From NCBI RefSeq assembly GCF_036269755.1, contig NZ_DATBDV010000006.1, positions 489 to 64,488 of the forward strand: a stretch of DNA of 64,000 bases. Direction: 5' to 3'. Below, piece after piece: positions 8,014-26,486 of this stretch. This stretch comes from Sphingomonas sp. GTDB taxonomy: Bacteria; Pseudomonadota; Alphaproteobacteria; Sphingomonadales; Sphingomonadaceae. The translations under genes were made by a program, and so were the position numbers. The number at the start of each line of letters is the position of its first letter. The stretch's first letter is position 1. Below the pieces are notes generated by a model. It made no database searches, was not told where the DNA came from, and saw only the letters and a program-made list of their open reading frames with translations.

Positions 8014-8043
8014 GACATAACATTCGATCTGCCGTGCTGCCAA
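8014..8043 (-). promoter_or_regulatory. Putative housekeeping-sigma promoter for the precursor gene
   Basis: TTGGCA (-35-like) and GTTATGTC (resembles the Caulobacter-type GCTANAWC -10) on the minus strand at sigma70-like spacing. Confidence 0.35.
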
Positions 8044-8094
8044 GGATTAATTGCGCATCCGCTTCCGGACGAGCCGCACATTCGCGGACGCAGC

Positions 8095-10035: not shown

Positions 10036-10146
10036 TGCCTGTCCGTCCCCCAAACGCCCAACTCGGCGGAAGGCTTCGAAGTCGCATCGCGCGCCGCGCC
10101 ATGCAAGCCGCTTTTCGATTCGATCCACGATGGCTAGGGACGGCGG

Positions 10147-11079
10147 ATGCCGAGCGAGGTCCGCCATTATCGATTGTTCGGCCTGACGCTGGCGTCGGCG
10201 ATCGAATTACCCGACTTGCGCGAAGTGACGGAGTCGCGCCCGGACGTAACGATTACGATCGGTGAGGTGCCGATGCCGGCGCAATTGTCGGAGGTCGGGC
10301 TCAACCTCGTCGACGACGCTGCCGTCCTGCCGGTCGTTGGTGCGGGTCGCTATCGCGTGCGCGGCGGCACATCGATCCAAATCGATCCCGAGCCCGGCGC
10401 ACCGGCCGCGAATATCCGACTGTTCCTGCTTGGCTCTGCGATGGGAGCGTTGTTGCACCAGCGGGGGATGCTGCCGCTCCACGCCAATGCGATCGACGTC
10501 GGGGGCAGGGCGATCGCCTTTATCGGCCGGTCGGGGGCGGGCAAGTCGACGCTCGCCGCCGCGTTCCACGACCACGGCTGCGCGCTCCTGTCGGACGATA
10601 TCTGTGTCGTGACCGAGGGCCCCGACGGCGGCCAGTGCGCCCAACCCGGAATCCCGCGCGTGCGGTTATGGCGCGATGCGGTCGAACGCAGCGGTCGAGA
10701 CGCCGCTGGCCTGGATGTTGCTTATGCCGGGGTGGAGAAATATGTCCTGCAGATCGGCGAGACCTACGCCGATACGCCGCTGCCGCTCGCCGCGATCTAC
10801 GTGCTCGCCGAGCCGGATGAAGGCGATGCTCCCCCCGAAATCGCGCCGATCACGGGCGCCGCGGCAATCCGCGCACTCGCCGTCAACACCTACCGCGGCG
10901 CGTACGTGCCCCTTGTCGGCAGTCCGGCGGACCATTTCGCGCAATGCCAAGCGCTAGTCCGCGACGTTCCGATTTTCCTGCTTCGTCGTCCCTGGCGCGC
11001 CGATCGGATCGACGAGACCGTCCGCCTGGTCACCGCGCAAGTTGCGCGTGTCAGCGAGGATCGCCACTTTCCGAAATAA
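10147..11079 (+). CDS. HPr kinase-like lasso-peptide kinase
   Basis: LHANAI, GRSGAGKST (Walker A) and LLSDD motifs in lasso-cluster context. Confidence 0.88.
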   Translation: MPSEVRHYRLFGLTLASAIELPDLREVTESRPDVTITIGEVPMPAQLSEVGLNLVDDAAVLPVVGAGRYRVRGGTSIQIDPEPGAPAANIRLFLLGSAMGALLHQRGMLPLHANAIDVGGRAIAFIGRSGAGKSTLAAAFHDHGCALLSDDICVVTEGPDGGQCAQPGIPRVRLWRDAVERSGRDAAGLDVAYAGVEKYVLQIGETYADTPLPLAAIYVLAEPDEGDAPPEIAPITGAAAIRALAVNTYRGAYVPLVGSPADHFAQCQALVRDVPIFLLRRPWRADRIDETVRLVTAQVARVSEDRHFPK

Positions 11080-11353
11080 TCACGATGCCGTCGCTCGACA
11101 GGTCTTGCAGCAGGTCGCGGACATCCGCCTCGCACGTCGCGGGATCGACCTCGAACTCTTCGGCCAACGCCGCGCAAATCTCCGCGAACGACCGGGGCTG
11201 CTCGATCAACTGCCAAGTCCGCGTCGCGGTCGCGTTGAACCCGTAGCACATGCCGTTGCCGATATGCAGGCCGACGATCTCGCCATCCATTTCGGCCTCG
11301 ATCAGCCCGGCGCCTCGCCGCACCAGAATGTTGCTCGTATCGCTCCAATCCAT
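11051..11353 (-). CDS. PqqD-family RiPP recognition element (B1/RRE)
   Basis: 100 aa; EMDGEIVGL...YGFNATATRTWQLIEQPRSFAEICAALAEEFEVD..TCEADVRDLLQDL is the PqqD pattern; it is the C-terminal part of track ORF 11051..11965. Confidence 0.9.
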   Translation of the reverse strand: MDWSDTSNILVRRGAGLIEAEMDGEIVGLHIGNGMCYGFNATATRTWQLIEQPRSFAEICAALAEEFEVDPATCEADVRDLLQDLSSDGIVIISESGDPR

Positions 11354-11455
11354 CGCGCGCTTCCAGCATAACGGGGTGCGACGTTCAAGTTCGGCCGGGC
11401 GCATGGCGGCAGGAAACCCGTTGCGGGACTCGTCCGGCTGCGACAAACGGGGCGG

Positions 11456-11878
11456 GTGGGGCGACACGGGATCACGGATTGGGCGTTGGCCGCCGAAGCA
11501 TTCGCGTCGCTCGCGGTCGCGCGGCTGACGCTGCTGGTCGTGCCGTTCCCGGTGCTGGCGAAACGTCTGTCGGCGCCGCTTGTCAAACGCCGCTCGGTTT
11601 CCGCCGCCATTCCCCGGCGCGTCGGCTGGGCGGTCGCAGCGGCGGGCCGGCACAGCCCGATACGGTTCGTCTGTTTTCCGCAAGCGCTGGCGGCAAGGGC
11701 AATGCTGCATCGGCGCGGGGTTCCGACGATGCTGCATTACGGTGTTGCCAAGACCGAGGGCAAAGTTCACGCGCATGTCTGGCTGAGCGCGGCGGGCACC
11801 GACGTCGTCGGATACGTCAATAAAGCGGATTTCAAGCTGGTCGCGACGTTTCCTGCGCAAGCGATTTGTGCGGAATGA
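11456..11878 (+). CDS. Lasso leader peptidase B2 (transglutaminase-like); start uncertain
   Basis: CFPQALA (catalytic Cys), LHYGV and HAHVWL (His) motifs. Confidence 0.88.
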   Translation: MGRHGITDWALAAEAFASLAVARLTLLVVPFPVLAKRLSAPLVKRRSVSAAIPRRVGWAVAAAGRHSPIRFVCFPQALAARAMLHRRGVPTMLHYGVAKTEGKVHAHVWLSAAGTDVVGYVNKADFKLVATFPAQAICAE

Positions 11879-13104
11879 CGATGCCCGGCGCGCCTGGCTT
11901 GCGGGGAAAGGCGACGGACAGGAACGCGGCAATGCGCTTTCTGTGCCTTCTCTGTTCGCAAGCAACGCCCGATGGCTCGGCGGACGCCGCCGCGCTCGCG
12001 AGGCGCATCGCCGACTGGAACGCGTTCGAGCACCTGGTGGCGCGCCATCGGGTGGCCGGGCTGGTGCATGCCGGGCTCAAACGCCAACCGCAGATCGTCG
12101 TCCCTGTTACCCCGCGTCAGTCGATCGCGGGCGCTGCCGCGACGATCGCGCGCGAGAACATGGCGATGGCGCTGGAGACGGTGCGGCTTCAGCGGCTGTT
12201 CGACGAAGCCGGTGTGGACGCGATCTTCTTCAAGGGCGCGACGCTGGCGCAGCAGGTCTACGGTACTTTCGCGATCCGGCACGGCAAGGACGTGGATTTC
12301 GTCGTTTCGCCGGGCGACGTCGAACGATGCGTCGCGCTGCTCGAGCAAGACGGTTACGCGCTGTTCGATCTGCCGTCGCCGCTCAGCCCGCGGCAGTGGC
12401 GCGGGCTGCTGCAGTTCGCGATGGAGATCGTCATGATCCATCGCGACCGGCACATTCAGATCGAACCGCACTGGCAGCTTAGCGACAACAGGCGGCTCCT
12501 ACCGCTCGCAACGCTGGCCCGGTCGGCGAGCAAGGAATGGACCCGGATCGGCGACGTCGCGATCAGGACGTTCCATCCCGACGACTCGTTCGCGTATCTC
12601 TGCATGCACGGGGCGCGAAGCGGCTGGTATCGCCTGAAATGGCTGACGGACATCGACGCGCTCCTCAACCCCGCAGGGGAGGACGATCTTGTAAGGCTTT
12701 ATCGTCATTCCGAAAGCTTGGGCGTCGGTCCGGCAACGGCGCTTGCACTATCGCTCTATGCCCAGCTGTTCGGGCGCCCGGTCCCGGCCGAAATACTCGC
12801 TCGCGTAAGTGGCAACTGGACGTTGCGAAGGCTGCGATCCTTGAGCCTTTCCAATCTCGATCGGCCGCGGTCGATGCCGGGTGCGCGTCGCACATTCATG
12901 CTGCACATGCTGCTCGCCGCGGCACACGGCTATCTGCTGTCCGAGCTCTGGCGGTGGAGCGTCTCGGTGATTGACGTCGTCAGGGTTCCGCTCCCGCGAC
13001 CGCTTCACTTCCTGTACCCGGCCTTGCGGTTCCCCCTTTTGATCGGACGGCGGGTCGCGGCCTTGTTCGCCAAAAGCTCGGCTGATGACGCCCCCGCAGC
13101 CTAG
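11875..13104 (+). CDS. Nucleotidyltransferase family protein (lasso-cluster associated)
   Basis: FKGATLAQQVYG..IRHGKDVDFVV, IEPHWQL and WYRLKWLTDID motifs; ATGA overlap with B2. Confidence 0.85.
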   Translation: MTMPGAPGLRGKATDRNAAMRFLCLLCSQATPDGSADAAALARRIADWNAFEHLVARHRVAGLVHAGLKRQPQIVVPVTPRQSIAGAAATIARENMAMALETVRLQRLFDEAGVDAIFFKGATLAQQVYGTFAIRHGKDVDFVVSPGDVERCVALLEQDGYALFDLPSPLSPRQWRGLLQFAMEIVMIHRDRHIQIEPHWQLSDNRRLLPLATLARSASKEWTRIGDVAIRTFHPDDSFAYLCMHGARSGWYRLKWLTDIDALLNPAGEDDLVRLYRHSESLGVGPATALALSLYAQLFGRPVPAEILARVSGNWTLRRLRSLSLSNLDRPRSMPGARRTFMLHMLLAAAHGYLLSELWRWSVSVIDVVRVPLPRPLHFLYPALRFPLLIGRRVAALFAKSSADDAPAA

Positions 13105-13116
13105 CCTCCCGCGCGT

Positions 13117-15393
13117 CTAGGCGACGATCCGCACCGGCACGCCCTTGGCGGCCGGCGTTTTCGATTCCTCGTCGTGGTACCAGAGCGGAACCAGCGGATT
13201 CAGCTCGGGAAAGTACCCGCCGATGCAGCCGCGCGGGAGCAGGAACGGCGTGACGGCCAAGCCACCGACCTGTCGATCGACCCCGTCGTCCGCATCGCTC
13301 GCCAGCGCGACGACCTGGCCCTTGGTCAGCCCCGCCGCGGCGATGTCCTCGGGGTTCATCAGCACCACCTCGCGTGTTCCCTCGATCCCGCGCAAGCGGT
13401 CCGAATAGCCGTAGATTGTCGTGTTGAACTGGTCGTTCGACCGAAGCGTAATGAGGCGATAGCGGCCTTCCTTGTCCGAAAATCCGATCGAGCGCATCGA
13501 TTTGGGCACGGTGAACTGCGCCTTGCCGCTCTTGGTCTTCCACACGCGCTCGCGCGCCGGATTGCCGCGATAGAAGCCACCGGGGGTAAACACGCGCGCA
13601 TTGAAGTCGTGGAACTGATCGGGGTAGGTTTCCTCGATCAAGTCGCGGATCCTGGCATAGTCGCCGGTCCAGCCGTCCCAATCGACCTTGGGGTTGGGCG
13701 GCAACGTCGCCTTGGCCATGCCCGCGACGATCGCGACTTCCGACTTCAGATCCTTCGACGCCGGCTTATTCTTGCCGAGCGAGCCGTGAATGCACGACAG
13801 CGAATCCTCCATCGTGACCGCTTGCTCGCCGCTCGCCTGGACATCGTGCTCCGAGCGGCCGAGGCAGGGGAGGAGGTAGGCGACCTCGCCGTTGATCAAA
13901 TGGCTGCGGTTGAGCTTGGTCGCGATCTGGACGGTCAGCCGCAATTTCGTCCACGCCGCTTCCATCTTCTCGCGCTCGGGGATCGCGCGGACGAAATTGC
14001 CGCCCAGCCCGATGAACGCCTTGACCGCGCCCGACAGGATGTTCTCGCACGCCTTGACGGTGTTCATTCCCTCTTCGCGCGGCGGCTCGAACCCGAATTG
14101 CTCGGCGATCTTGTCGAGCGGGACGAGCTCCGGCTTTTCGGAGATGCCGACGGTGCGCTGGCCCTGCACGTTCGAATGGCCGCGCACCGGCGAGATGCCG
14201 GCACCGTCGCGGCCGATATTTCCCTTGAGCAGCCACAAATTGGTCAGCATCGCGAGATTGTCGAAGCCGTGGACGTGCTGGGTCAGCCCCATACCGTACA
14301 GGCAGATCGCGCGGTGCGATTCGACATAGATTTGTGCTGCAGCCTCGATGTCCGCGCGGGCGAGGCCGCTCTCGCGCTCGATCTCGTCCCAGCTCGCCGC
14401 GTCCGCCTTGGCCTTGATCTCTTCGAACCCGACCGTGTGTTGCTTGATGAAGTCCACGTCTAGGACGTGGAGCTTCTCTTCCGCCCACTTCTTCTCCTCG
14501 GCGGCGAGAACGTATTTGATCATCCCCATGATCGCCGCGATGTCGCCGCCCGATTTGACCTGAAGATAGAGCGTCGAGATTTGAGTCTCTTTCGGCGTCA
14601 GCATTTCGGTCGGGCTTTGCGGGTTCTTGAAGACCTCGAGACCCTTTTCGCGGATCGGGTTAAAGGTGACGATCTTGACCCCGCGCCGCACCGCTTCCTG
14701 CAGCGGATGAAGCAGCCGCGGGCTGTTGGTGCCGGGATTTTGCCCGAAGAAGAACATCGCGTCGCACAGATGAAAGTCGCTCAGCACGCAAGTGCCGACC
14801 GGAGAGCCGATCACCTTCTTGAGCGCGACCGAGGTCGTCTCGTGGCACATGTTCGAGCTGTCGGGCAGGTTGTTGTGGCCATAGAGCCGAGCGAACAGCG
14901 CGTAGAGGTAACTCGTCTCGAGGCTGGCGCGGCCCGAGGCGTAGAATACCGCCGCCCCCGGATCGATCGCCTTCAACTCGCGGCCTATGCCCTCGAACGC
15001 TTCCTCCCACGGACAGGGGACGTAGGTGTCGCTGGCATGGTCGACCCGCATCGGGTGCGTCAGCCGTCCCTGCTGTTCGAGGTCGTGGTCCTTCCACGTC
15101 TTGAGCTCGGTGACGGTGTGCTCGGCGAAGAATTCGGGGGTGCAGCGCCGCGTCGTCAGCTCCCACAAGGTCGCCTTGGCGCCGTTCTCGCAAAATTCGA
15201 ACGCATGCGGGTGCGCCGGCTTGGTCCAGGCGCACGACACGCACATGAACCCCTTGACCTTGTTCTGCCGGCGCAGCGTGTTGAGTGCGCCGAGCGTCGG
15301 CCGCTCGCGCAACGCCGTCTCGGCGATACCGCGCAGCGAGCCCCAGCCACCTTCGGCACCGTTATAGTGGACCGTCTCGTCTTCGTCGGTCAT
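13117..15393 (-). CDS. FdhF/YdeP family molybdopterin oxidoreductase
   Basis: GAEGGWGSL, CVSCAW, FCENGAKA, PDSSNMCHETT, RGHSNVQG and TLRSNDQFNTTIYG motifs. Confidence 0.92.
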   Translation of the reverse strand: MTDEDETVHYNGAEGGWGSLRGIAETALRERPTLGALNTLRRQNKVKGFMCVSCAWTKPAHPHAFEFCENGAKATLWELTTRRCTPEFFAEHTVTELKTWKDHDLEQQGRLTHPMRVDHASDTYVPCPWEEAFEGIGRELKAIDPGAAVFYASGRASLETSYLYALFARLYGHNNLPDSSNMCHETTSVALKKVIGSPVGTCVLSDFHLCDAMFFFGQNPGTNSPRLLHPLQEAVRRGVKIVTFNPIREKGLEVFKNPQSPTEMLTPKETQISTLYLQVKSGGDIAAIMGMIKYVLAAEEKKWAEEKLHVLDVDFIKQHTVGFEEIKAKADAASWDEIERESGLARADIEAAAQIYVESHRAICLYGMGLTQHVHGFDNLAMLTNLWLLKGNIGRDGAGISPVRGHSNVQGQRTVGISEKPELVPLDKIAEQFGFEPPREEGMNTVKACENILSGAVKAFIGLGGNFVRAIPEREKMEAAWTKLRLTVQIATKLNRSHLINGEVAYLLPCLGRSEHDVQASGEQAVTMEDSLSCIHGSLGKNKPASKDLKSEVAIVAGMAKATLPPNPKVDWDGWTGDYARIRDLIEETYPDQFHDFNARVFTPGGFYRGNPARERVWKTKSGKAQFTVPKSMRSIGFSDKEGRYRLITLRSNDQFNTTIYGYSDRLRGIEGTREVVLMNPEDIAAAGLTKGQVVALASDADDGVDRQVGGLAVTPFLLPRGCIGGYFPELNPLVPLWYHDEESKTPAAKGVPVRIVA

Positions 15394-15453
15394 CGCAATT
15401 CCTTCGCCTCGTCGCCAGCCGTCCAAGCTTAGCGCCGGCGGCTGTCATTTGCG

Positions 15454-15478
15454 AACGCTTGCACCGGCTACGCGATCC
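15454..15478 (-). promoter_or_regulatory. Possible EcfG/SigT general-stress promoter (GGATC-N16-CGTT)
   Basis: One mismatch to the GGAAC-N16/17-CGTT consensus, upstream of the oxidoreductase gene. Confidence 0.3.
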
Positions 15479-15588
15479 TTCAGGGGCTCCCCGGCGGAAA
15501 AATTAGCTCGCGATCGCTGGTCGACATTGACGAGTCCGCCTGCGGCCCCAGCTACCTTTTTGCGCGATCGCGCTCCGTTTTAAGCGAA

Positions 15589-15611
15589 ATCAAACGAATA
15601 TGTTGTTTGAT
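15589..15611. promoter_or_regulatory. Candidate operator ATCAAAC-N9-GTTTGAT at the NRPS operon start
   Basis: Perfect 7-bp AT-rich inverted repeat overlapping the first possible start codons. Confidence 0.3.
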
Positions 15612-17457
15612 GGCGCTCATGACCAGCCAATCTTCCCAAGCTCGGGCGTCGTCCGAAGCGTTCGCCTTTGTTCCCAGTGCAGCGGGTGTTCCCGCCGATG
15701 CGATCACGCGCGTGGCGCGCGCGCATCCCGACCGGACCGCATTGATAGCGCCCTGCGGGACGCTCAGCTATGGCGAGTTGCTCGACCGCGCGGACCGCGT
15801 TGCGGCGTGGCTGCGAACCAAGGGCGTCGGCGCGGAAAGCCTGGTCGGTATTTGCATGGAGCGGTCGTTTGACCAGCTGACGGTCGCGCTGGGCATATGG
15901 AAAGCGGGCGGCGCCTATCTGCCGCTCGATCCATCCTGGCCCGACGGCCGCTTGCGGATGATCGTCGAGGATGCCGCGTGCGCGGTCGTGGTCGGCCGCA
16001 ATGAGGTGGTCGAGCGGCTGGCGGGGGTCGATACCCCGGTCGTCGCGCTCGACTGGAACACCTTGCCCGCCGCCGAGGAAGCGTCCGCGACGCCGGTCGA
16101 TGCGGAGGGCTTGGCCTATGTGATTTACACCTCGGGCACGACCGGCAAGCCCAAGGGCGTCGAGGTGAGCCACGGCAACCTCGCGCATCTGATCGCGTGG
16201 CATAACCACGCGTTCGGCGTGACCGCCGACGATCGCGGCAGTCACCTTGCCGGGCTCGGGTTCGACGCCTCGATCTGGGAAGTCTGGCCGTATCTCTGCG
16301 CCGGTGCCTCGGTCGTGCTCGCGCCCGATGAGGTCCGCACCTCCGACACCAAGCTGCGCGCCTGGCTGATCGTTCAGGGCGTCACCGTCGCGTTCGTTCC
16401 CACCGCGCTGGCGCAGGAGCTGATCCGCGACGATTGGGCGAGCGGCGCCAAGTTGCGCTACCTGCTGACCGGCGCCGACCGTCTGCTCGGGCGTCCCCGC
16501 GCGGGGTTGCCGTTCGCGCTGGTCAACAATTACGGTCCGACCGAATGCACCGTGGTCGCGGCGTCCGAAGTCGTGCCGCCCGAAGCGGTAGAGAAGGGTA
16601 TCCCGGCAATCGGCCGCCCGATCGGCGCGACGACGATCCACATCCTCGGCGCCGAAGGCCAGCCGGTCGCAACCGGCGAGCAGGGCGAAATCTTCATCGG
16701 CGGGCCGTCGGTCGCGCGTGGTTACCGCCACCTGCCGGCGATGACCGCCGAGAAGTTCGTGACGATCGCCGGGGAGCGCTGCTATCGCACCGGCGACCGC
16801 GGATCGTGGCGACCGGACGGGCAGATCGCGTTCCATGGCCGGGTCGATGACCAGGCCAAGGTGCGCGGCCATCGCGTCGAGCCCGAGGAAACCGCGCATG
16901 TGCTGCGCGAGCATCCCGCGGTCCGCGCCGCCGCGGTGATCGCGGCGCCGGCCGCCGATGGCAGCGACATGCTGGTCGGCTATGTCGTCGCCAGCGACAC
17001 CGTCACCGCCGAGGATCTGCGCGATCACCTCGCCAATACGCTTCCCGAATATATGATCCCATCCGCATTCGTGCGGATCGACGCGCTGCCGCTCACCGCC
17101 AACGGAAAGCTCGACAAGAAGGCGCTGCCCGAACCGTCGGACGACAATGCGCTGGCGTCGGCCGGGTTCGCCACCGCGCAGACCGCGGCGGAGGAACGGC
17201 TGGTCGAGATCCTGACCGCGGTGCTCGGCCGCGGCAATGTCGGGATCGACGACAATTTCTTCCTGCTCGGCGGGCATTCGCTGCTCGGCACCCAAGTCGT
17301 GCTGCGCGCCGGCGAAGCGTTCGGCATCGACCTGACGCTGCGCGACCTGTTCCAGGCGCCGACGATCCGTCAGCTCGCGGCGCGGATCGAGGAAATCTTC
17401 CTGCGCATGATCGATGAAATGAGCGACGACGAAGCGCAAGCGCGCGCCGCCGAATAG
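15607..17457 (+). CDS. Stand-alone NRPS A-T didomain, predicted Leu-specific (start at 15607, 15610 or 15619)
   Basis: A3 YVIYTSGTTGKPKG, YGPTE, YRTGD and NGKLD; PCP FFLLGGHSL; specificity code read by eye as DAWFLGNVVK, the Leu signature. Confidence 0.92.
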   Translation: MMALMTSQSSQARASSEAFAFVPSAAGVPADAITRVARAHPDRTALIAPCGTLSYGELLDRADRVAAWLRTKGVGAESLVGICMERSFDQLTVALGIWKAGGAYLPLDPSWPDGRLRMIVEDAACAVVVGRNEVVERLAGVDTPVVALDWNTLPAAEEASATPVDAEGLAYVIYTSGTTGKPKGVEVSHGNLAHLIAWHNHAFGVTADDRGSHLAGLGFDASIWEVWPYLCAGASVVLAPDEVRTSDTKLRAWLIVQGVTVAFVPTALAQELIRDDWASGAKLRYLLTGADRLLGRPRAGLPFALVNNYGPTECTVVAASEVVPPEAVEKGIPAIGRPIGATTIHILGAEGQPVATGEQGEIFIGGPSVARGYRHLPAMTAEKFVTIAGERCYRTGDRGSWRPDGQIAFHGRVDDQAKVRGHRVEPEETAHVLREHPAVRAAAVIAAPAADGSDMLVGYVVASDTVTAEDLRDHLANTLPEYMIPSAFVRIDALPLTANGKLDKKALPEPSDDNALASAGFATAQTAAEERLVEILTAVLGRGNVGIDDNFFLLGGHSLLGTQVVLRAGEAFGIDLTLRDLFQAPTIRQLAARIEEIFLRMIDEMSDDEAQARAAE

Positions 17458-17466
17458 GACGCATCC

Positions 17467-18729
17467 ATGACCGACCAAGCACCGATCAAGGCGGCCGCCG
17501 CGCTCGACCCGAGCCTGAGCCTGTTCCAGCTGCTCGAGCCGGCGATCCACGCCGACCCGTTCCCGTTCTACAAGCGCCTGCGCGAGGAAGCGCCGGTGGC
17601 GTGGGACCCGTTCATGCACACCTGGGTCGTCACTCGGTACGAGGACGTCCATTTCGTGCTGAAGGAATTCAGCGCGGATCGCACGCCCGACGTCGCCAAG
17701 ATGGAGGCGCTCGGCCTGCCGTCGCTCGGCCCGGTCGCCGATGTGATGGCCAAGCAGATGCTGTTCCTCGACGCGCCCGCGCACACGCGGCTGCGCAAGC
17801 TCTGCATGAGCGCGTTCACCCCGCGCCGGGTCGAGGCGATGGAAGGCAAGATCCACGAAATCGCGCACCAGCTGATCGACGACCATATCGGCAATGGTCA
17901 GATGGAACTGATCGCCGATTTTGCCGAGCCGTTTCCGGCGATCGTCACCGCCGGTCTGCTCGGCGTGCCGCTCGACGATCATCGCCAGCTCAAGGCGTGG
18001 TCGGCGACCTTCGCGGAGATGCTCGGCAATTTCCAGCATAACCCCGATCGCATCCGCGACGTGCTCAAGTGCGTCGCCGATATGACCGGCTATTTCCGTG
18101 ACGCGGTTCGCGAGCAGGAGCGAAACCCGCACGACGGGCTGATCCGCTCGCTGATGGACGCCGAAGTCGACGGCCAGCGGCTTAGCGAGGACGAGGTCAT
18201 CGCCAACACCATCGTGACGATGGTCGGCGGGCAGGAGACCACGACCAACCTGATGGGCAACGGCCTGCTGACGCTGATCCGCCAGCCCGACAAGCTCGCG
18301 CAGTTGCGCGACAATCCGGAGATCATCGCCAGCGCCGTCGAGGAATTGCTGCGCTTCGAGACCCCAAGCCAGCACACCGCACGGATCTGCCCCGCCGATA
18401 CGATGATGGGCGGCCAATTGATCCGCAAGGGCGAGGCGGTGATGGCGGTGATGGCGGCGGGCAATCGCGATCCGGAACGCTTTGCCGATCCCGACACGCT
18501 CGATCTGACGCGCACCGACAACCGCCATCTGGCGTTCGGCTGGGCGGCGCATTTCTGCTTCGGCGCGGCCTTGGCGCGGATGGAGGCCCGGATCGCGTTT
18601 CCCGCGCTTGTCGGCCGGCTCCAGAACCTCAGCGTGACGAGCGATATCCTCGAATGGCGGACCAATTCCGGACTGCGCGGGCTCACCGCGTTGCCGATCG
18701 CGTTCCGCGCGGGGGAGCGGGCCGCGTGA
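17467..18729 (+). CDS. Cytochrome P450, probably acting on a carrier-protein-bound substrate
   Basis: I-helix GGQETT, EELLR (ExxR) and heme motif FGWAAHFCFG; lies between the two NRPS genes. Confidence 0.95.
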   Translation: MTDQAPIKAAAALDPSLSLFQLLEPAIHADPFPFYKRLREEAPVAWDPFMHTWVVTRYEDVHFVLKEFSADRTPDVAKMEALGLPSLGPVADVMAKQMLFLDAPAHTRLRKLCMSAFTPRRVEAMEGKIHEIAHQLIDDHIGNGQMELIADFAEPFPAIVTAGLLGVPLDDHRQLKAWSATFAEMLGNFQHNPDRIRDVLKCVADMTGYFRDAVREQERNPHDGLIRSLMDAEVDGQRLSEDEVIANTIVTMVGGQETTTNLMGNGLLTLIRQPDKLAQLRDNPEIIASAVEELLRFETPSQHTARICPADTMMGGQLIRKGEAVMAVMAAGNRDPERFADPDTLDLTRTDNRHLAFGWAAHFCFGAALARMEARIAFPALVGRLQNLSVTSDILEWRTNSGLRGLTALPIAFRAGERAA

Positions 18730-21700
18730 ACGCCCACGCCGCGCTGTCGGATTCGAAACGACAGTTGCTCGAAAAGATGATGCGCGGCGGCATCGCGCCC
18801 GCCGACAAGCCCGCACCGATCCAGCCGCGCCGGCCGGGCGCGGCGATCCCGCTATCGGCCGACCAGCGCCAGGTGTGGCTCCACGCCATCATGGCGCCGG
18901 ACGTGCCGCTGTATAACGAATCGATCACGATCCATCGCTTCGGCAGCTTCGATCGCGACGCGATGGCGCGCAGCGTCAACGAGATATTGCGCCGTCACGA
19001 AGCGTGGCGGACGGCGTTCGTCGAAGAAGCGGGCGAGCTCGTCCAGCACGTCCGTCCGCACCGCGACATCGAGCTGCCGTTCGACGATGTCAGCCACTTG
19101 CCGGAAGACCAGCGCGATGCCGCCGCGCTCAAGATCGGCAGCGATGACGCCCGCCGCGCGATCGACCTGTCCGACGCCCCATTGTTCCGCGCGCGGATCG
19201 TCAAGCTGTCCGACGACAATCACCGGCTCTATTTCACGCTCCACCACATCATCTTCGATGGCGTCGCGATCTATCGCGTGATCGTGCCCGAACTGGCGGC
19301 GATCTATGAAGCGTTCGCGCGCGGCGAGCCGTCGCCGCTGCCGATGCCGGCATTGCAATATGGCGACTATGCGATCTGGCAGCGGGAGCATCTCAAGAGC
19401 GCGCCGATCCAGAAGCAGATCGATTATTGGCGCACGACGTTGGCCGACGCGCCGGCCAAGCTCGAAATCCCCGGTGACCGCATCAAGGCGGCGCGGCCGA
19501 CGCACGCCGGGTCGATGGAAGTGTTCCAGATCCCGCACGATCTGACCGAGGCGTTGAAGGAGGCGAGCCGGCGCGAAGGCGTGACGCTCTACATGACCTT
19601 GCTCGCGGCCTATCACGCGCTGCTGCATCGTTATTCGGGCGAGGAGGACATTATCGTCGGCGGGGTCACCGATCTTCGCCGCCGGCCCGAGCTCGACCAG
19701 GTGGTCGGCTATTTCCTCAACACCATCGCATTGCGCGCCAAGCCGAAGGGCGACCTCGCATTTCGCGATTTCGTGCGCCACGTGCGCGAGACCGTGCTCG
19801 GCGCGCTCGGCGCGAGCGAGGCGCCGTTCGACGAGGTGGTGCGCGCGCTCGACGTGCGGCGCGAGCCCGGCACGCATCCTTTGTTCAACTGCCTGTTCTC
19901 GATCGAGCCGCCGGTCGAGCCGTTCGCCGACGGCTGGGACTTGACCCAGATGGACGTGGTGGTCGGGGGCGCGAAGTTCGACCTCTACCTCGAACTCGAC
20001 GAGCGGCCCGACGGGATGATCGGGCGGTTCCTCTATTCGACCGAGCTTTACGATCCATCGACGATCCGCCGGATGATCGGGCATTGGCTCACGATATTGC
20101 GCGCGGTGGCCGAGGACATGGGGTGCCCGATCCGCGACTTGCCGTTGCTCGATTCGGTGGAGTCGCAGTTGCTGGTCGACTGGAACAACACCGCGCGGCG
20201 GCACAAGGCGAAATTGCTGGTCGAGGCGGTCTCGGCGCAGGCGAAGGCGCGGCCCGATGCGGTGGCGGTGCGGTTCGGCGACCAGTCGATAAGCTACGCC
20301 GCGCTCGATGCCCGGGCGCAAGCCATCGCCGCGGCGTTGCGCGCGGCAGGGTTGGGCAAGAGCGACCTCGTCGGCGTCTGTCTCGATCGCTCGACCGACA
20401 TGGTTGCAGGGTTGCTTGGCGTGTTGCGGATCGGCGCGGCGTACCTTCCGCTCGATCCCGACTTCCCGCCGGCGCGGCTCGATTACATCGTCGGGGAGGC
20501 CGGCGCCAAGGCGTTGCTATCCGAACGCAAGCTGGATGCCGTGCTGCCCGGATGCGCGCTGCCGCGCGTCCTGGTGGACGATATCGGCGCTTCGGCGACC
20601 GACGTGCCCGCTGCGGAAATCGCCGCCGGCGACCTTGCCTATGTCCTCTACACCTCGGGCTCGACCGGCCGCCCCAAGGGCGTCGAGATCAGTCACGGCG
20701 CGCTGATCAACCTGCTCGCGTCGATGCGCGAGCAGCCTGGGTTCGGCGCGGGCGATTCGTTGCTCGCAGTCACCACCCTGTCGTTCGACATCGCGATGCT
20801 CGAACTGTTCCTGCCGCTGATCGCCGGCGGCGAGTTGATCGTCGCGCCGCGCAACAGCGCAGTCGATCCGCGCGCGCTGATCGACCTGATCCATACTGCC
20901 AACCCGAGCGTCATGCAGGTGACCCCAGCGACGTGGCGCGCGCTGGTCGAGGCCGGTTGGCAAGGCTCACCGAGCTTGCGGGTTCTGTGCGGCGGCGAAG
21001 CCTTCCCGCGCGACCTGGCCGAAGCGTTGCTGATGCGTGCGGGCGAGGTGTGGAACGTCTATGGCCCCACCGAGACCACGATCTGGTCGACCGTCGCGCG
21101 CGTGACCGGCAGCACCGGCCCGGTCCCGATCGGCCGCCCGATCGCCAACACGAGCATCCACATCCTCGACCGCTACGGCAACACCGCGCCGATCGGCGTG
21201 ACCGGCGAATTGTTCATCGGCGGCGCGGGTCTCGCGAAGGGCTATCGCAACCGTCCCGATCTTACCGCGGAGCGCTTCGTCGAGGTGCGCGGCGAGCGGC
21301 TCTACCGCACCGGCGACCTCGCGCGCTGGCGTCCGGACGGGACAATCCTGTGCCTCGGCCGTGTCGACAATGACGAGAAGATTCGCGGCTATCGCGTGTC
21401 AGTCGAGGAGATCGAGGGTGCGCTCGCAACGCATCCTGAGGTTGCCGCCGCCGCCGTCCGCAGCTGGCCGGACGCGTCGGGTGAACGCGCGCTCGCCGCC
21501 TATGTCGTCGCGCACGGTGGCGCCGAGCCGAGCCGCGCGGAGATGCGCGAGCACCTCGCGCAGACGCTGCCCCAATACATGATCCCCTCGACCATCGAGC
21601 TGTTGCCCGCGCTGCCGATGACGCCCAACGGCAAGATCGACCGCAAGGCGCTGCCCAAGCCGGGCGGGAACGCCGCCGCCGCGATCGAGCCGCCACAGGG

Positions 21701-22718
21701 CGAAACCGAGCAAGCGCTGGCCGCGATCTGGTGCGACATCTTGCGCATCCCCGCGGTCGGCCGCGACGACAGTTTCTTCGAGCTCGGCGGTCATTCGTTG
21801 CTCGTCGCGCGGCTGCTCGTGCGGATCGAGCAGCATTGGGGCCGCCGCATCGGCATGGCAGAATTCTTCGGCGCGCCGGTGCTCTCCAAGCTCGCCACAC
21901 TGATCGACGGTGACGCCGGCGTCGAGGTGGGCGCGCTCGTCCCGCTCCAGCCGCTCGGCGACGAACTGCCGCTATTGTGGATCGATGGCGGCCCGACCTT
22001 CCTGGCGCTTGCCAACGCGATGGGCACTGATCGGCCGTTCCTCGGCCTCGCGCTCGGCCCGATCCTCGAGCGCGACCTCAAGCCCGGCATGCGGTTCGAG
22101 GATATCGCCGCCGCCGTGGTTGCGGTGATCCGCCAGCGCCGCCCGCGCGGACCGTATCTAATCGGCGGCTGGTGCACCAACGGCATCCTGGCGTTCGAGA
22201 TCGCGCGCCAGCTTCGCGCCGACGGCGACGACGTTCCGCTGCTGGCACTCGGCCACACGATGAATCCGGTCGCGTTCCAGGAGATCACCACCGCGCAGAT
22301 GCGGATGAGCAAGGCGCGCTACCATCTCGGCGTGTGGAACAGCCTGCCGTTCAACCGGCGCCTCGGCTATGCCCTCGAGCGCGCGCGCGGGATGCTGGAG
22401 GAAGTCGGCATGGCCGACGCCGACCGCCCGGACGGCCGCTATCGGCCTTTCGCGGCGGTGATGGAGCAGGCGGCGTACGGCTACACGCCCGGCGTCTATG
22501 ACGGCGCGGTCGCGTTGTTCCAGCCGACCGAACGCCTCGACGTGCTCGACACGCGGCCGGGTTGGGCGACCATCGTTACGGGCCCGCTCCAAGCGCACGA
22601 CATTCCCGGCAGCCACGGCACGATGACCGAGCCGCCCAATGCCGACGTCTTCGCGGCCCGGCTGCGCGACTCGATCGAGCGCGCCTTGAAGCCCGGACAG
22701 AGCGCGGCGGCAGCGTGA
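18726..22718 (+). CDS. NRPS termination module C-A-T-TE, predicted Gly-specific, Cys-type thioesterase
   Basis: C domain HHIIFDG; A domain YTSGSTGRPKG with code DILQLGVIWK (Gly signature); PCP FFELGGHSL; TE GGWCTNG...GSHGTM; GTGA overlap with the P450. Confidence 0.93.
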   Translation: MNAHAALSDSKRQLLEKMMRGGIAPADKPAPIQPRRPGAAIPLSADQRQVWLHAIMAPDVPLYNESITIHRFGSFDRDAMARSVNEILRRHEAWRTAFVEEAGELVQHVRPHRDIELPFDDVSHLPEDQRDAAALKIGSDDARRAIDLSDAPLFRARIVKLSDDNHRLYFTLHHIIFDGVAIYRVIVPELAAIYEAFARGEPSPLPMPALQYGDYAIWQREHLKSAPIQKQIDYWRTTLADAPAKLEIPGDRIKAARPTHAGSMEVFQIPHDLTEALKEASRREGVTLYMTLLAAYHALLHRYSGEEDIIVGGVTDLRRRPELDQVVGYFLNTIALRAKPKGDLAFRDFVRHVRETVLGALGASEAPFDEVVRALDVRREPGTHPLFNCLFSIEPPVEPFADGWDLTQMDVVVGGAKFDLYLELDERPDGMIGRFLYSTELYDPSTIRRMIGHWLTILRAVAEDMGCPIRDLPLLDSVESQLLVDWNNTARRHKAKLLVEAVSAQAKARPDAVAVRFGDQSISYAALDARAQAIAAALRAAGLGKSDLVGVCLDRSTDMVAGLLGVLRIGAAYLPLDPDFPPARLDYIVGEAGAKALLSERKLDAVLPGCALPRVLVDDIGASATDVPAAEIAAGDLAYVLYTSGSTGRPKGVEISHGALINLLASMREQPGFGAGDSLLAVTTLSFDIAMLELFLPLIAGGELIVAPRNSAVDPRALIDLIHTANPSVMQVTPATWRALVEAGWQGSPSLRVLCGGEAFPRDLAEALLMRAGEVWNVYGPTETTIWSTVARVTGSTGPVPIGRPIANTSIHILDRYGNTAPIGVTGELFIGGAGLAKGYRNRPDLTAERFVEVRGERLYRTGDLARWRPDGTILCLGRVDNDEKIRGYRVSVEEIEGALATHPEVAAAAVRSWPDASGERALAAYVVAHGGAEPSRAEMREHLAQTLPQYMIPSTIELLPALPMTPNGKIDRKALPKPGGNAAAAIEPPQGETEQALAAIWCDILRIPAVGRDDSFFELGGHSLLVARLLVRIEQHWGRRIGMAEFFGAPVLSKLATLIDGDAGVEVGALVPLQPLGDELPLLWIDGGPTFLALANAMGTDRPFLGLALGPILERDLKPGMRFEDIAAAVVAVIRQRRPRGPYLIGGWCTNGILAFEIARQLRADGDDVPLLALGHTMNPVAFQEITTAQMRMSKARYHLGVWNSLPFNRRLGYALERARGMLEEVGMADADRPDGRYRPFAAVMEQAAYGYTPGVYDGAVALFQPTERLDVLDTRPGWATIVTGPLQAHDIPGSHGTMTEPPNADVFAARLRDSIERALKPGQSAAAA

Positions 22719-23380
22719 CTCTGACGATCGACCTGTCGCAGACCAACGAGGTCGTGCTGGTCGAGCTCGAAGTGGCGCCTGCTGCGCTCGCGAATTTCCA
22801 CGCGACGCTCGATTCCGGCGAGCGTGAGTGCGCGAGCCGGTTCCGCTTCGCGCGCGACCGCGACCGCTACATCGCGCGGCGGGGACAACTGCGAGCGTTG
22901 CTCGCCGAAAGGACCGGCGAGCGAACCGCCGCGCTGCGCATCGCGGCAGACGCGTACGGCAAGCCGTTCCTCGTTGACCGTCCCAAGCTCCACTTCAGCC
23001 TCTCGCACTCGCATGGCCGCGCATTGTTTGCGTTCGGCTGCGAGGCAATCGGGTGTGACCTCGAATGGCGCAATCCCGAGCTCGCCTGCCGCAGCGTCGC
23101 CGCGCGGCTGTTCGCGCCCGCCGAGGTCGCCGCGCTCGACGCGCTTCCCGCCGAGCAATGGGTCGCGGGGTTCTACAATTGCTGGACGCGCAAGGAAGCG
23201 TTCGTGAAGGCGATCGGCCTCGGACTGTCCTATCCGCTCGATGCGTTCGAGGTTTCGGTCGATAAGGCCGCGCGTTTCGTCACCGGCGCGGCAGGGTGGT
23301 CGCTCGTGTCGTTCGAACCCGCGCCCGGTTTTCAGGCAGCGCTGGTGACTCGCTTGCCCGAGGGTGCGACCGCCGGCTGA
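22715..23380 (+). CDS. Sfp-type 4'-phosphopantetheinyl transferase
   Basis: YGKP, HFSLSHS, IGCDLE and FYNCWTRKEAFVKAIGLGL motifs; GTGA-coupled to the NRPS. Confidence 0.93.
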   Translation: MTLTIDLSQTNEVVLVELEVAPAALANFHATLDSGERECASRFRFARDRDRYIARRGQLRALLAERTGERTAALRIAADAYGKPFLVDRPKLHFSLSHSHGRALFAFGCEAIGCDLEWRNPELACRSVAARLFAPAEVAALDALPAEQWVAGFYNCWTRKEAFVKAIGLGLSYPLDAFEVSVDKAARFVTGAAGWSLVSFEPAPGFQAALVTRLPEGATAG

Positions 23381-24852
23381 TACGGCTTGCCGCGCGCCAT
23401 CGAGATCGCTTCCAGCACGACATCGCGCGTGAACAGCATCAGCCAGCCGGCATAGACCGCCGCGCCCAGCCCGACCAATGCCAGCAGCCGCAGCTGCACC
23501 GCCATCTGCGGCAGTACATCGTCGAGAAGCATCACCAGCGCCCCCATCGCGAGCGCCGCCCCGATCGTCGGCGCGATCGCGCGGGCCAGTGCGGTCGCCC
23601 TGAGCCCGATCACCGGCAGCACCCGCACCGCGGTGATCGCGAGGTAGATCGGGTAGGCGACAAACCAGGAAGCGGCGAGCCCGGTCACACCCCAGCGCAA
23701 CCCGACCAGGAAACAAGCTGGCAGCAACACCGCGCCGATCGCACCGATATGGACGGTGATCCCTGGGCGGCCCATCGCGCTGCACGCCGGGCTGAACAGC
23801 ACTTGTAGCGTCATCATCGGCATCGCCAGCGCGAGCAATTGCACCAGCGGTGCCGCGTCGACCCATTTTGGCCCGAGCACGGTCGCGACCAGCGGCTGCG
23901 CGGTCACCGCAAGCCCGATGTAGAACGGCATCGCCACCAGCATCACCATCCGCGCCGACCGCGCGAATCCCTCGGCCACTGCGGAGCGGTTGTCCTGCAT
24001 CCGGGCATAGATCGAGAACGCGACATCGTTGATCGCTGGAACGAATTTCGACACCAGGATCTGGGTCAGGAACAGCCCGGTCGTGTAGAGGCCGAGCGTC
24101 GCCGGGTCGAGGACGCGCCCCGCGATGAACACGTCGGCCTGGCTCTGCAGGAACCAGAACAACTGCCCAGCCGCCATCAGCCCGCCGAACTTCGCGAGCG
24201 CGCCAGATCCGCGGAAATCGAACAATGGGCGGTAATGGTGCCCCGATGCGACCGTCATCCCGATTGCGCGCGTGACGTACAGCACCGCGGGCGCCGCGAT
24301 CAGCGTCCACACGCCGAGCCCGGTATAAGCCCCCGCCAGCGCGGTCAGCGCGCCCGTCACCGACGACAGCAGGTAAACCCGCGCCTGGTGCTTGAAGTCG
24401 ATCGCGCGGGCGAGCAGCGCATACGGGAACGCGACGAACGGCGTCGTGAAATAGAGGAAGGACTGGACGCGCAACAGGTCGGCGACGATCGGCTGGCGAA
24501 AATAGGCGGCGACGACGGGCGCCATCGCGAATTGCAGCGCGCCGAGCGAAAAATTGAGCACGATCAGCATGCCGTACAGCTGCCGCACCGTGCGCTCGTC
24601 GGCGTCGGGCTTTTGGATCAGCCCGCTCGCGAGGCCTGCGCCGTTGAGCATGTTGAGCATCGCCAGCACGACCTGAGTCATTGCGAACAGGCCGTAATCG
24701 TTCGGATTCAGGATGCGGATCACCAAAAACGTCGCCGCCCAGGTGATGATCTGGCCGACGATCTGCGCGCCCGACCGCCAGATTACCGCACGCCGCGCCT
24801 GCGCGAACAGCGGCTCGGGTTCGGAATCGAGCGGATCGGACGGAGACTGCAT
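23332..24852 (-). CDS. Wzx/PST-family oligosaccharide flippase
   Basis: IRILNPNDYGLFAM, GL.SGLIQK, LGLYTTG and LGPKW motifs; 12 or more hydrophobic segments; convergent 49-bp overlap with the PPTase gene. Confidence 0.88.
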   Translation of the reverse strand: MQSPSDPLDSEPEPLFAQARRAVIWRSGAQIVGQIITWAATFLVIRILNPNDYGLFAMTQVVLAMLNMLNGAGLASGLIQKPDADERTVRQLYGMLIVLNFSLGALQFAMAPVVAAYFRQPIVADLLRVQSFLYFTTPFVAFPYALLARAIDFKHQARVYLLSSVTGALTALAGAYTGLGVWTLIAAPAVLYVTRAIGMTVASGHHYRPLFDFRGSGALAKFGGLMAAGQLFWFLQSQADVFIAGRVLDPATLGLYTTGLFLTQILVSKFVPAINDVAFSIYARMQDNRSAVAEGFARSARMVMLVAMPFYIGLAVTAQPLVATVLGPKWVDAAPLVQLLALAMPMMTLQVLFSPACSAMGRPGITVHIGAIGAVLLPACFLVGLRWGVTGLAASWFVAYPIYLAITAVRVLPVIGLRATALARAIAPTIGAALAMGALVMLLDDVLPQMAVQLRLLALVGLGAAVYAGWLMLFTRDVVLEAISMARGKPYQPAVAPSGKRVTSAA

Positions 24853-24937
24853 CCGCGCATTGTGCGCACAAGATGCTTAAAGCGCGCCTAAAGGTGAGGT
24901 CCGCCGGAGCGGATTCGGCGCGAAAAGCAGGCCTCAC

Positions 24938-24962
24938 GCAACATAGTCGAGCGCAATCCGTT
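24938..24962 (+). promoter_or_regulatory. Putative EcfG/SigT promoter (GCAAC-N16-CGTT)
   Basis: Matches the alphaproteobacterial general-stress promoter consensus with one substitution and correct spacing. Confidence 0.5.
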
Positions 24963-24990
24963 GGCGCTTGGTGCGACGATGGAGCGAACC

Positions 24991-25233
24991 ATGACCGGCG
25001 AAGACGACGGCATCCACCTTTACGGCACCCCCGACCCCGACAATCCGGGCCCACTCGCCGAAGGCGGGCTGCGCGGCGAGCGGACCGGCGATCGCGGCCC
25101 GGACCGCGCGCTCGAGGGCACGCCCGGCGGCAACGATCCCGAGAAGGTCGAGGATCGCCCCAATGTCAGCCAAGTGAAGCCCGGGGATTATCCCGCCGCG
25201 GACCGCGCGGAGTCGAGCCCCGACAAGGGCTGA
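24991..25233 (+). CDS. Small acidic, probably disordered hypothetical protein (80 aa)
   Basis: GGAG RBS 6 nt before the ATG; D/E/G/P-rich; downstream of the EcfG-like promoter. Confidence 0.65.
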   Translation: MTGEDDGIHLYGTPDPDNPGPLAEGGLRGERTGDRGPDRALEGTPGGNDPEKVEDRPNVSQVKPGDYPAADRAESSPDKG

Positions 25234-25325
25234 CCCTCGTCCGCCCATTTTAGCGAGATCGAAGCGAGACGCAGGCCTCGCGATCGGCCATAACCGCTCC
25301 AAAACCCGATAGGAGAGGCGCGGCG

Positions 25326-26486
25326 ATGGGGCATTTCGGTGATTACCAGAACGAGATCTACGGCGCCGGCTTGCGCGGCGTGCTGACCAAGCTGCCGGTG
25401 GACTTCGCCACGCTGGTCGAGCGCGCGACCGCGGCGATGCCCGGCCACGTGCTCAACTACGTCCAGGGCGGCTGCGGCGACGAATGGACTCAGGACAGCA
25501 ACGCCGCGGCGTTCCGCCATTGGGGCATGGTGCCGCGAATGATGGTCGGCACCACGCAACGCGACCTGTCGAACACGATTTTCGGCCACACCTATCACAG
25601 CCCGATCTTCATGAGCCCGATCGGCGTCACCGGCATGTGCTCGCAGGACCAGCATGGCGATATCGCGGCGGCGCAGGCGTCGGCGATGACCGGGGTGCCG
25701 ATGACGGTCTCGACGCTCGGCAACGACACGATGGAGGATGTGGCAACGCGCCTCGGTGACGTGCCCGGCTTCTTCCAACTCTATACCCCGCGCGACAAAA
25801 ATCTGGCCGAAAGCCTGATCCATCGCGCCGAGGCGGCGGGGTATCGCGCGCTGGTGGTGACGCTCGACACGTGGGTGACCGGCTGGCGCCCGCGCGACCT
25901 CAACGCCGGCAATTTCCCGCAGCTTCGTGGCCACGTGCTGACCAATTACTTTGCCGATCCTGTGTTCCAAAAGATGCTCGGCAAGGATCCGGCGTCGGCG
26001 CCCGCCGAAGCGACGATGCTATGGGCGTCGCAATTCGCGCGGCCGCTGACCTGGGACGACATGGCGTGGCTCAAGTCGGTGACGAAAATGCCGATCGTGC
26101 TCAAGGGCATCTGTCACCCCGACGACGCGAAGAAGGCGGTCGATCTCGGCGCCGATGCCTTGTTCTGCTCGAACCATGGCGGGCGTCAGGCCAATGGCGG
26201 GATCGCGGCGATCGACATGCTACCGGGCGTGGTCGCGGCGGCAGGGAACACGCCGGTGTGGTTCGACAGCGGCATCCGATCGGGCAGCGACGTGATCAAG
26301 GCGCTGGCGCTCGGTGCGAGCGCGGTCGGCGTCGGGCGCCCGTTCGTCTACGGCCTCGCGCTCGATGGCGCGGCGGGCGCGGCGCACGTGCTCAAGTGCA
26401 TCCTGGCGGAGGCGGACCTGATGATGGCGGTGAACGGGATGCCGACGCTGGCGGATGTGCGGAAGGCGGGGGCGGCGCGGGCGTAA
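25326..26486 (+). CDS. FMN-dependent alpha-hydroxy acid oxidase (lactate 2-monooxygenase-like)
   Basis: GWRPRDL, LKGI, SNHGGRQ, DSGIRSGSDVIKALALGA and GRPFVYGL motifs. Confidence 0.92.
   Translation: MGHFGDYQNEIYGAGLRGVLTKLPVDFATLVERATAAMPGHVLNYVQGGCGDEWTQDSNAAAFRHWGMVPRMMVGTTQRDLSNTIFGHTYHSPIFMSPIGVTGMCSQDQHGDIAAAQASAMTGVPMTVSTLGNDTMEDVATRLGDVPGFFQLYTPRDKNLAESLIHRAEAAGYRALVVTLDTWVTGWRPRDLNAGNFPQLRGHVLTNYFADPVFQKMLGKDPASAPAEATMLWASQFARPLTWDDMAWLKSVTKMPIVLKGICHPDDAKKAVDLGADALFCSNHGGRQANGGIAAIDMLPGVVAAAGNTPVWFDSGIRSGSDVIKALALGASAVGVGRPFVYGLALDGAAGAAHVLKCILAEADLMMAVNGMPTLADVRKAGAARA

Follow-up and report, generated by a model that had tools for sequence, protein, structure and literature searches.

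A five-gene cassette of Sphingomonas that may assemble a small oxidised Leu-Gly peptide

We analysed a 64,000-nucleotide stretch of DNA from a Sphingomonas sp. (contig NZ_DATBDV010000006.1, positions 489 to 64,488; here called the window), in which positions 15607-23380 hold four co-directional genes. In this order they encode a free-standing adenylation-thiolation (A-T) didomain, a cytochrome P450, a condensation-adenylation-thiolation-thioesterase (C-A-T-TE) termination module from an NRPS (non-ribosomal peptide synthetase) and an Sfp-type 4'-phosphopantetheinyl transferase (PPTase). Together with a convergent gene for a MOP/PST (Wzx-type) membrane protein they form a compact unit of about 9.3 kb, which we read as a self-contained, mobile accessory cassette of five genes. 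On balance, we favour the view that this cassette makes a small oxidised Leu-Gly peptide.

The pathway that we propose would begin with the conversion of both carrier domains to their holo forms by the PPTase of the operon. The A-T protein, which carries a leucine code, would activate L-leucine and tether it as Leu-S-T1, and the P450 would oxidise the tethered leucine, most likely at the beta position. Helices conserved at the protein ends would then let T1 dock onto the C domain of the C-A-T-TE protein, which, loaded with glycine, would form (oxidised Leu)-Gly-S-T2, as domain logic and code suggest. From there the dipeptidyl chain would move to Cys1150 of the AB3403-like TE and be released. 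Candidates for the release step are hydrolysis, diketopiperazine formation, ester-linked oligomerisation via the new hydroxyl and transfer to another acceptor. Finally, the MOP/Wzx protein, which appears to be co-inherited, would carry the product across the inner membrane, a role suggested by its conservation.

A gene family found in several phyla

One genome per species was scanned with an alignment of the P450. At least 528 relatives were found, and the loci of the best 80 were fetched. These 80 belong to Sphingomonadaceae, other Alphaproteobacteria (Stellaceae, Rhodospirillales, Pseudolabrys), Acidobacteriota, Verrucomicrobiota and Eremiobacterota. The A-T gene lies directly upstream of the P450 gene in essentially all of them, the C-A-T-TE gene follows in most, and the PPTase gene comes next in most of the alphaproteobacterial ones. 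Because this gene order is repeated in about 80 loci, it is far above chance. The best conserved protein across the family is the P450 (62-89% identity in these loci, 59-89% when compared across phyla), followed by the A-T protein (43-85%) and the NRPS (38-82%). The cassette is no one-off but a member of a large cross-phylum family.

The family is scattered within its host groups. Of the 300 Sphingomonadaceae genomes sampled, 4 carry the P450, and within the genus it is present in one of 26 sampled genomes besides the genome of the window. The genes that flank the unit in the window are shared by none of the 80 relatives, and the flanks are wholly different between genomes. It is this patchy distribution, together with the unrelated flanks, that leads us to read the unit as a mobile accessory cassette. 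In a search for an empty site, the closest sampled genome of the same genus with the neighbouring FdhF/YdeP gene (G001; 82% identity) shared neither flank, so that no insertion boundary can be drawn from it.

The searchable literature, MIBiG not being part of the search, yielded no characterised cluster of A-T/P450/C-A-T-TE architecture. This agrees with the first-pass annotation, which had not recognised the architecture as that of a characterised cluster.

Predicted substrates of the two A domains

Four anchors, namely FDxS, the turn with GGE/TGAD, xYGPTE and the lysine of A10, were used to read the specificity codes. The free-standing A domain (A1) has the code DAWFLGNVVK and the A domain of the module (A2) the code DILQLGVIWK, which reproduces the earlier reading of both. 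We take the first to be the canonical leucine code of the Stachelhaus table and the second to be a one-residue variant of the canonical glycine code DILQLGLIWK. Among 64 orthologous A-T proteins from several phyla, whose overall identity is just 43-85%, 60 have the identical A1 code, and the A2 code takes the form DILQLG[VM]IWK in 65 of 69 family members. Since the codes are near-invariant across the family, both assignments are strengthened.

The nearest relatives of solved structure point the same way. The A-T protein is closest to module 1 of LgrA, which handles an aliphatic amino acid, and the C-A-T part to LgrA module 2, DhbF and AB3403. LgrA module 2, module 1 of DhbF and AB3403 all activate glycine. 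AB3403 was crystallised with glycine bound. Thus, the proposal that the free-standing A-T activates leucine and the A domain of the termination module glycine, made before in the first-pass annotation, is supported by the conservation of the codes and by the solved relatives.

Probable oxidation on the assembly line

Adjacency of the A-T and P450 genes, docking-type tails and gene fusions support the prediction that the P450 acts on the assembly line and not on a released product. In all lineages the A-T protein is kept apart from the C-A-T-TE protein, with the P450 gene in between. The A-T/P450 pair stays together in some Acidobacteriota in which the C-A-T-TE gene is on the other strand (L068, L072, L073, L087), and in the eremiobacterotal locus L075 it occurs without a C-A-T-TE gene across 21 kb. 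No C-A-T-TE gene was seen in L067, L074 and L080, where the fetched DNA stops within about 5 kb downstream of the P450 gene. The A-T protein ends in a conserved tail, IExLVxxxIExMSDDEA..., and the C-A-T-TE protein begins with a conserved segment, LSxSKRxLLEKMLRGGG; these look like docking elements of split NRPSs.

In two Acidobacteriaceae the C-A-T-TE protein carries the orthologous P450 as an in-frame N-terminal fusion, giving polypeptides of 1830 and 1850 aa. The fused genes (L083:9893-15385, L089:9899-15451) stand directly after the gene of the Leu A-T protein, in an operon with Bac_transf, sulfotransferase and Wzy_C genes, and they encode a Ser thioesterase (GYSFGG) instead of a Cys one. 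Such fusions favour oxidation on the assembly line. The best PDB match of the P450 is BioI (3EJB), followed by PksS, YjiB and CYP107s of the PikC/EryF type. BioI depends on a carrier protein, its substrate being acyl-ACP. For the P450 of the cassette, an AF2 model based on an alignment of six sequences reached a pLDDT of only 52.

As to the reaction, chemistry makes beta-hydroxylation most likely. We favour the beta position on the ground that a thioester hydroxylated at the gamma or delta carbon would probably be lost from the carrier by lactonisation ahead of condensation, while a beta-hydroxy thioester is stable. Beta-hydroxylation is also the reaction of known carrier-dependent P450 systems. 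The first-pass claim that leucine is oxidised on the carrier is therefore supported as regards action on the assembly line, which adjacency, tails and the two fusions favour; the position of oxidation is a prediction, the P450 being CYP107/BioI-like.

A Cys-type thioesterase

The nucleophile of the TE is Cys1150, and a Cys is kept at this position in 64 of 70 loci. His1297 in the GSH motif is the catalytic His and is invariant in an alignment of 18 TE sequences. At position I, after strand beta6, where AB3403 and most NRPS TEs have the Asp of the triad, the Sphingomonas enzyme has His1177; this residue is His in 48 of the 70 loci and Asp only in distant members. Asp1275 is nearly invariant and lies in the loop after beta7 (position II; the strand is predicted by AF2 at residues 195-200 of the TE). 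A further histidine, His1200 in the lid helix (motif SKARYH, TE residue 133, window positions 22524-22526), is invariant in the 18-sequence alignment, distant members included, and is present in most of the 70 loci. The two positions of the triad Asp were defined in PMC11298585, where ObiF1 and SulTE are the only NRPS TEs for which the position-II layout is reported and where a Gln-Cys-Asn motif is described for SulTE.

By sequence (phmmer), the T-TE region is closest to AB3403 (4ZXH, E 9e-23), with GWCTNG aligned to GWCFGG. The AF2 model of the TE (pLDDT 88) again had 4ZXH as its first Foldseek match (E 9.6e-15), followed by the TEs of skyllamycin, NocB, Vlm2, FAS and Pks13; ObiF1 and SulM were absent from the 50 best matches. 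In a profile search, the clade to which the TE belongs comprised 6052 cluster representatives at E <= 1e-30, and about 70% of its best-scoring domains carry Cys. The Cys is therefore a trait of the clade and not peculiar to the Sphingomonas gene. Rather than atypical, as it had first been called, the TE is a member of a large clade of Cys-type TE domains.

A Cys nucleophile, the missing Asp at position I, the nearly invariant Asp at position II and a small substrate would also suit a TE that forms a strained ring, a beta-lactone or beta-lactam as made by ObiF1 and SulM, with the help of the hydroxyl installed by the P450. We rejected this idea, which we regard as very improbable. The TE-bound residue would be glycine, which has no beta substituent, so that a four-membered ring is not possible, and a hydroxyl on the N-terminal residue would give a seven-membered ring instead. 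Moreover, Trp-Cys-Thr replaces the Gln-Cys-Asn of SulTE, and in the Foldseek comparison AB3403 came first, with ObiF1 and SulM outside the top 50.

Within the same clade, some TE-like domains are internal, at about residues 1080-1400 of proteins of 2200-4500 aa (P0251, P0268, P0276, P0285, P0286). There they sit after the first C-A-T module with further sequence beyond, which is unusual for a release domain. Further TE relatives belong to proteins of C-T-TE type, about 830-1060 aa long and lacking an A domain, e.g. in Camelimonas lactis (P0078, P0079, P0082, P0088, P0108, P0112, P0117).

The MOP/Wzx-type neighbour

The gene next to the PPTase gene is convergent to it, and their 3' ends overlap by 49 bp. 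Its product matches Pfam Polysacc_synt_3 (4.6e-63) and the NCBIfam 'MOP flippase family' (167 bits, below the cut-off of 273). When all flanking open reading frames (ORFs) were clustered, this was the only recurrent flanking gene. It was present in 18 of 81 loci, in every case downstream and in convergent orientation, and the median overlap was 37 bp. In S. mali and Stakelama marina, for example, the same four genes are accompanied by a convergent PST/MOP gene that overlaps the 3' end of the PPTase gene, while the other surroundings are unrelated. The divergence of the MOP/Wzx protein tracks that of the NRPS: with NRPS identities of 71-82% its own identity is 74-88%, and with NRPS identities of 52-56% it is about 50%. 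This co-conservation points to a probable exporter (or flippase) of the product. The first-pass annotation had described a minimal operon with no adjacent exporter gene; the fifth conserved gene belongs to the unit, and the statement on the exporter is doubtful and probably wrong.

A second sphingomonad sub-clade (L031:15836-19640, L006:2647-3735) has an MFS transporter gene, likewise convergent, directly after the PPTase gene. Next come genes for a cysteine-dioxygenase-like protein and for a transporter of the AI-2E family; upstream, a LysR regulator is encoded. S. mali, too, has an AI-2E-family transporter gene, a few kb upstream.

Points against the pathway and alternative readings

Several observations weigh against a free peptide oxidised on the carrier. 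OxyD, NikQ, NovI and P450sky are not among the 60 best PDB matches of the P450, which by sequence places it outside the clade of these known aminoacyl-carrier hydroxylases. Its best NCBIfam match, with 203.8 bits where the cut-off is 500, is the family TIGR04538, 'cytochrome P450, cyclodipeptide synthase-associated'. No gene for a ferredoxin or reductase partner is encoded near the cassette. PST/Wzx proteins normally flip lipid-linked glycans, not small peptides. A Cys nucleophile with His at position I is left unexplained if the TE merely hydrolyses a dipeptide. Finally, the same core recurs within exopolysaccharide operons in other phyla, a hint that the product might not be a free molecule.

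The two points on the kinship of the P450 speak for a reading in which oxidation follows assembly. The NRPS would make Leu-Gly or cyclo(Leu-Gly), and the P450 would then oxidise the free product, as CypX and CYP121 do with cyclodipeptides. A dipeptidyl thioester with a free N-terminus cyclises easily, which also suits this route, and the product could be a hydroxylated, N-oxidised or aromatised pyrazine-type compound. Methoxypyrazine/hydroxypyrazine or pulcherriminic-acid-like products, from Leu, Gly and a P450, have a low probability and are kept solely as part of this reading. We hold post-assembly oxidation to be quite unlikely, since the TIGR04538 score is far under the cut-off and the locus has no cyclodipeptide synthase gene. 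It also provides no rationale for the separate A-T protein found in all loci with the P450 gene in between, and the covalent fusion of P450 and NRPS in L083 and L089 and the A-T/P450 pair without C-A-T-TE in L075 both stand against it.

The last three points bear on the acceptor of the peptide. The A-T/P450 set, in part with the NRPS, lies inside exopolysaccharide operons in a metagenome (L010), in Eremiobacterota (L075) and in Acidobacteriota (L081, L082, L083, L086, L089). Genes of these operons encode an initiating sugar-phosphate transferase (Bac_transf) immediately upstream of the A-T protein, GT4, Wzy_C, WecG, sulfotransferases, a polysaccharide deacetylase and a carbamoyltransferase. 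Taken with the Wzx-type gene of the sphingomonads, this suggests that the peptide may end up on a glycan. The Cys TE would then act as an acyltransferase that places oxidised Leu-Gly on a hydroxyl or amine of a sugar in a lipid-linked glycan or exopolysaccharide, and the putative PST/Wzx-family flippase encoded by the adjoining conserved gene would flip the intermediate. A thioester acyl-enzyme suits transfer to weak nucleophiles, and the TE of Pks13, one of the structural matches, transfers an acyl chain to a sugar. We nevertheless consider glycan decoration rather unlikely: the window ORFs that were scanned against Pfam include no glycosyltransferase, polymerase or initiating transferase, in most of the 80 loci no glycan gene can be recognised close to the cassette, and the MFS transporter in the Wzx position of L031 points to simple export. 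For the cassette of the window, the MOP protein is treated primarily as an exporter.

The exopolysaccharide loci have further features of their own. In the distant metagenomic relative (L010:1-20041) the A-T/P450/C-A-T-TE set is flanked by a second A-T-TE protein and by two sulfotransferases, GT4, a polysaccharide deacetylase, Wzy_C, WecG, a GDSL lipase and a carbamoyltransferase, a set of glycan-tailoring enzymes reminiscent of Nod-factor decoration. A family of proteins of about 370-410 aa occurs beside A-T/P450 where the normal C-A-T-TE protein is missing or in exopolysaccharide operons. It forms three tandem paralogues in L075 (11227-14578), with homologues in L067, L080, L082 (6748-7989) and L086. 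For the members encoded after the P450 in L075 and L082, sequence searches of Pfam, NCBIfam and the PDB gave no match.

Gene organisation

The genome that carries the window is 3.13 Mb in 23 contigs, 99.8% complete, with about 66% G+C. The features of the cassette and of a neighbouring gene set are listed in Table 1. The Pfam E-values for the operon domains range from 1e-11 to 1e-95, and the PPTase has in addition a HetI-like NCBIfam match below the cut-off. Pfam and the reading of the junctions agree with the first-pass description of four linked genes with one 9-nt gap and two GTGA overlaps. The stop codon TAG of the A-T gene is followed by 9 nt (GACGCATCC) and the ATG of the P450 gene at 17467. 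The P450 and C-A-T-TE genes overlap in GTGA at 18726-18729, and the C-A-T-TE and PPTase genes in GTGA at 22715-22718, where the GTG start of the PPTase gene overlaps the stop codon of the C-A-T-TE gene. GTG 18726 was accepted as the C-A-T-TE start because database homologues begin there with MNAH.... For the A-T gene the start codon is either TTG 15607 or the codon after it, ATG 15610.

All catalytic motifs are intact: HHIIFDG in the C domain, GGHSL in both T domains, A3-A10 in both A domains, and in the TE GWCTNG, with the Cys codon TGC at 22173-22175. The P450 likewise has intact motifs, namely the I-helix GGQETT, the ExxR motif EELLR and the haem loop FGWAAHFCFG (Cys codon 18556-18558). No riboswitch or leader came up when 15200-25400 was scanned with Rfam, and promoter and terminator scans gave nothing convincing. 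The C domain of the operon is the single one in the genome, which has no second NRPS. As the C-A-T-TE protein is the sole NRPS of the genome, the operon brings a dedicated PPTase. The first-pass annotation rightly saw no adjacent MbtH gene, and a search of the whole genome, which is 99.8% complete, likewise gave none.

Directly upstream of the cassette, beyond the FdhF/YdeP gene, lies a lasso-peptide-type gene set (window 7839-13104). In one other Sphingomonadales genome (L051:2918-5331), an Asn-synthase-like gene (28% identity) and an HPr-kinase-like gene (41%) lie 3-5 kb upstream of the A-T/P450/NRPS cassette there. The presence of such genes near both cassettes could be coincidence or linkage.

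Table 1. Features of the cassette and of the lasso-peptide-type gene set in the window
Feature	Position	Strand	Domains and remarks
A-T didomain	15607..17457	+	Pfam AMP-binding, AMP-binding_C, PP-binding
A domain of A-T	residues ~35-501		
T domain of A-T	residues 530-594		GGHSL
C-terminal tail of A-T	residues 595-616		docking-type
Cytochrome P450	17467..18729	+	420 aa; Pfam p450
C-A-T-TE termination module	18726..22718	+	1330 aa; Pfam Condensation, AMP-binding, AMP-binding_C, PP-binding, Thioesterase
N-terminal segment of C-A-T-TE	residues 1-40		docking-type
C domain of C-A-T-TE	18846-20174		
A domain of C-A-T-TE	20235-21635		
T domain of C-A-T-TE	21711-21905		
TE domain of C-A-T-TE	21927-22715		
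Sfp/HetI-type 4'-phosphopantetheinyl transferase	22715..23380	+	221 aa; Pfam AASDHPPT_N, ACPS
MOP/PST (Wzx-type) membrane protein	23332..24852	-	506 aa; Pfam Polysacc_synt_3, Polysacc_synt
Asn-synthase-like cyclase	8095-10167	-	
HPr-kinase-like gene	10147-11079		
PqqD/RRE gene	11051-11965	-	
NTP_transf_5 gene	11866-13104		

Significance

The cassette is common among soil bacteria from at least four phyla. If its product were identified, hundreds of orphan gene clusters would be assigned a function, the clade of Cys-type TEs, of which AB3403 is the only solved member, would gain a first chemical role, and the use of NRPS chemistry to modify exopolysaccharides would be put to the test. Glycan decoration, if true, would be a new route of polysaccharide modification and the first function for the Cys-type NRPS TE clade including AB3403, and it would explain the Leu-A-T/P450 core inside exopolysaccharide operons of Acidobacteriota and Eremiobacterota. 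The Sphingomonas copy is a convenient entry point, being compact, the sole NRPS of its genome and equipped with its own PPTase and a probable transporter.

Comparison with known systems

Loading of an amino acid on a free carrier, oxidation by a P450 and hand-over to an NRPS follow a well-known logic, while for the cassette itself no characterised member was found in the literature. The closest known enzyme is AB3403 (ABBFA_003403; 4ZXH/4ZXI), the C-A-T-TE module of the A1S_0112-0119 cluster of Acinetobacter baumannii. This cluster has been linked to biofilm and pellicle formation and to surface motility, and its product 'acinetin 505' has no defined structure. AB3403 and the Sphingomonas module share the four-domain architecture, a similar length (1320 and 1330 aa), a Gly-binding A domain and a Cys nucleophile (GGWCFGG in AB3403, GGWCTNG here), and AB3403 is the top match of the TE both by sequence and by Foldseek. 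Both systems also receive their upstream unit in trans from a free-standing loading enzyme and carrier, and both operons have a dedicated PPTase. They differ in that AB3403 keeps the Asp at position I, where His1177 is found here, and in the transporter, which is of RND type in Acinetobacter and a MOP protein here. In the Acinetobacter pathway the upstream steps fall to an acyl-AMP ligase, to an ACP that is a separate protein and to a tailoring enzyme resembling acyl-CoA dehydrogenases, in place of which the cassette has an A-T protein of predicted Leu specificity and a P450.

The front half of the cassette resembles A-T/P450 pairs of the NovH/NovI and NikP1/NikQ type, in that a free-standing A-T protein with intact motifs has a conserved adjoining P450. 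NovH/NovI, NikP1/NikQ, BpsD/OxyD and P450sky follow the same logic, in which a carrier-tethered amino acid is hydroxylated and a modified aminoacyl thioester supplied for an NRPS, and PlyR has been proposed to act in this way for the 3-hydroxyleucine of polyoxypeptin. Unlike in these pairs, the P450 of the cassette is CYP107/BioI-like and its predicted substrate aliphatic, and the pair serves a synthetase of a single module, where the known pairs divert a building block into a large pathway.

The TEs of ObiF1 and SulM share with that of the cassette a Cys nucleophile and a small substrate and, going by the AF2 model, also an acidic residue that comes after beta7 instead of beta6; the Sphingomonas TE differs in the predicted C-terminal glycine of its substrate, in the lack of a Gln-Cys-Asn motif and in not having these enzymes as its top structural match. 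Finally, modules 1-2 of LgrA (F-A(Val)-T-C-A(Gly)-T) likewise join an aliphatic amino acid to glycine, and the A-T protein matches module 1 with 365 bits and the C-A-T part (residues 60-1063) module 2 with 895 bits. LgrA, however, is a single polypeptide with a formylation domain that acts on the first residue and with 14 further modules, whereas in the Sphingomonas cassette the two modules are split, with the P450 between them.

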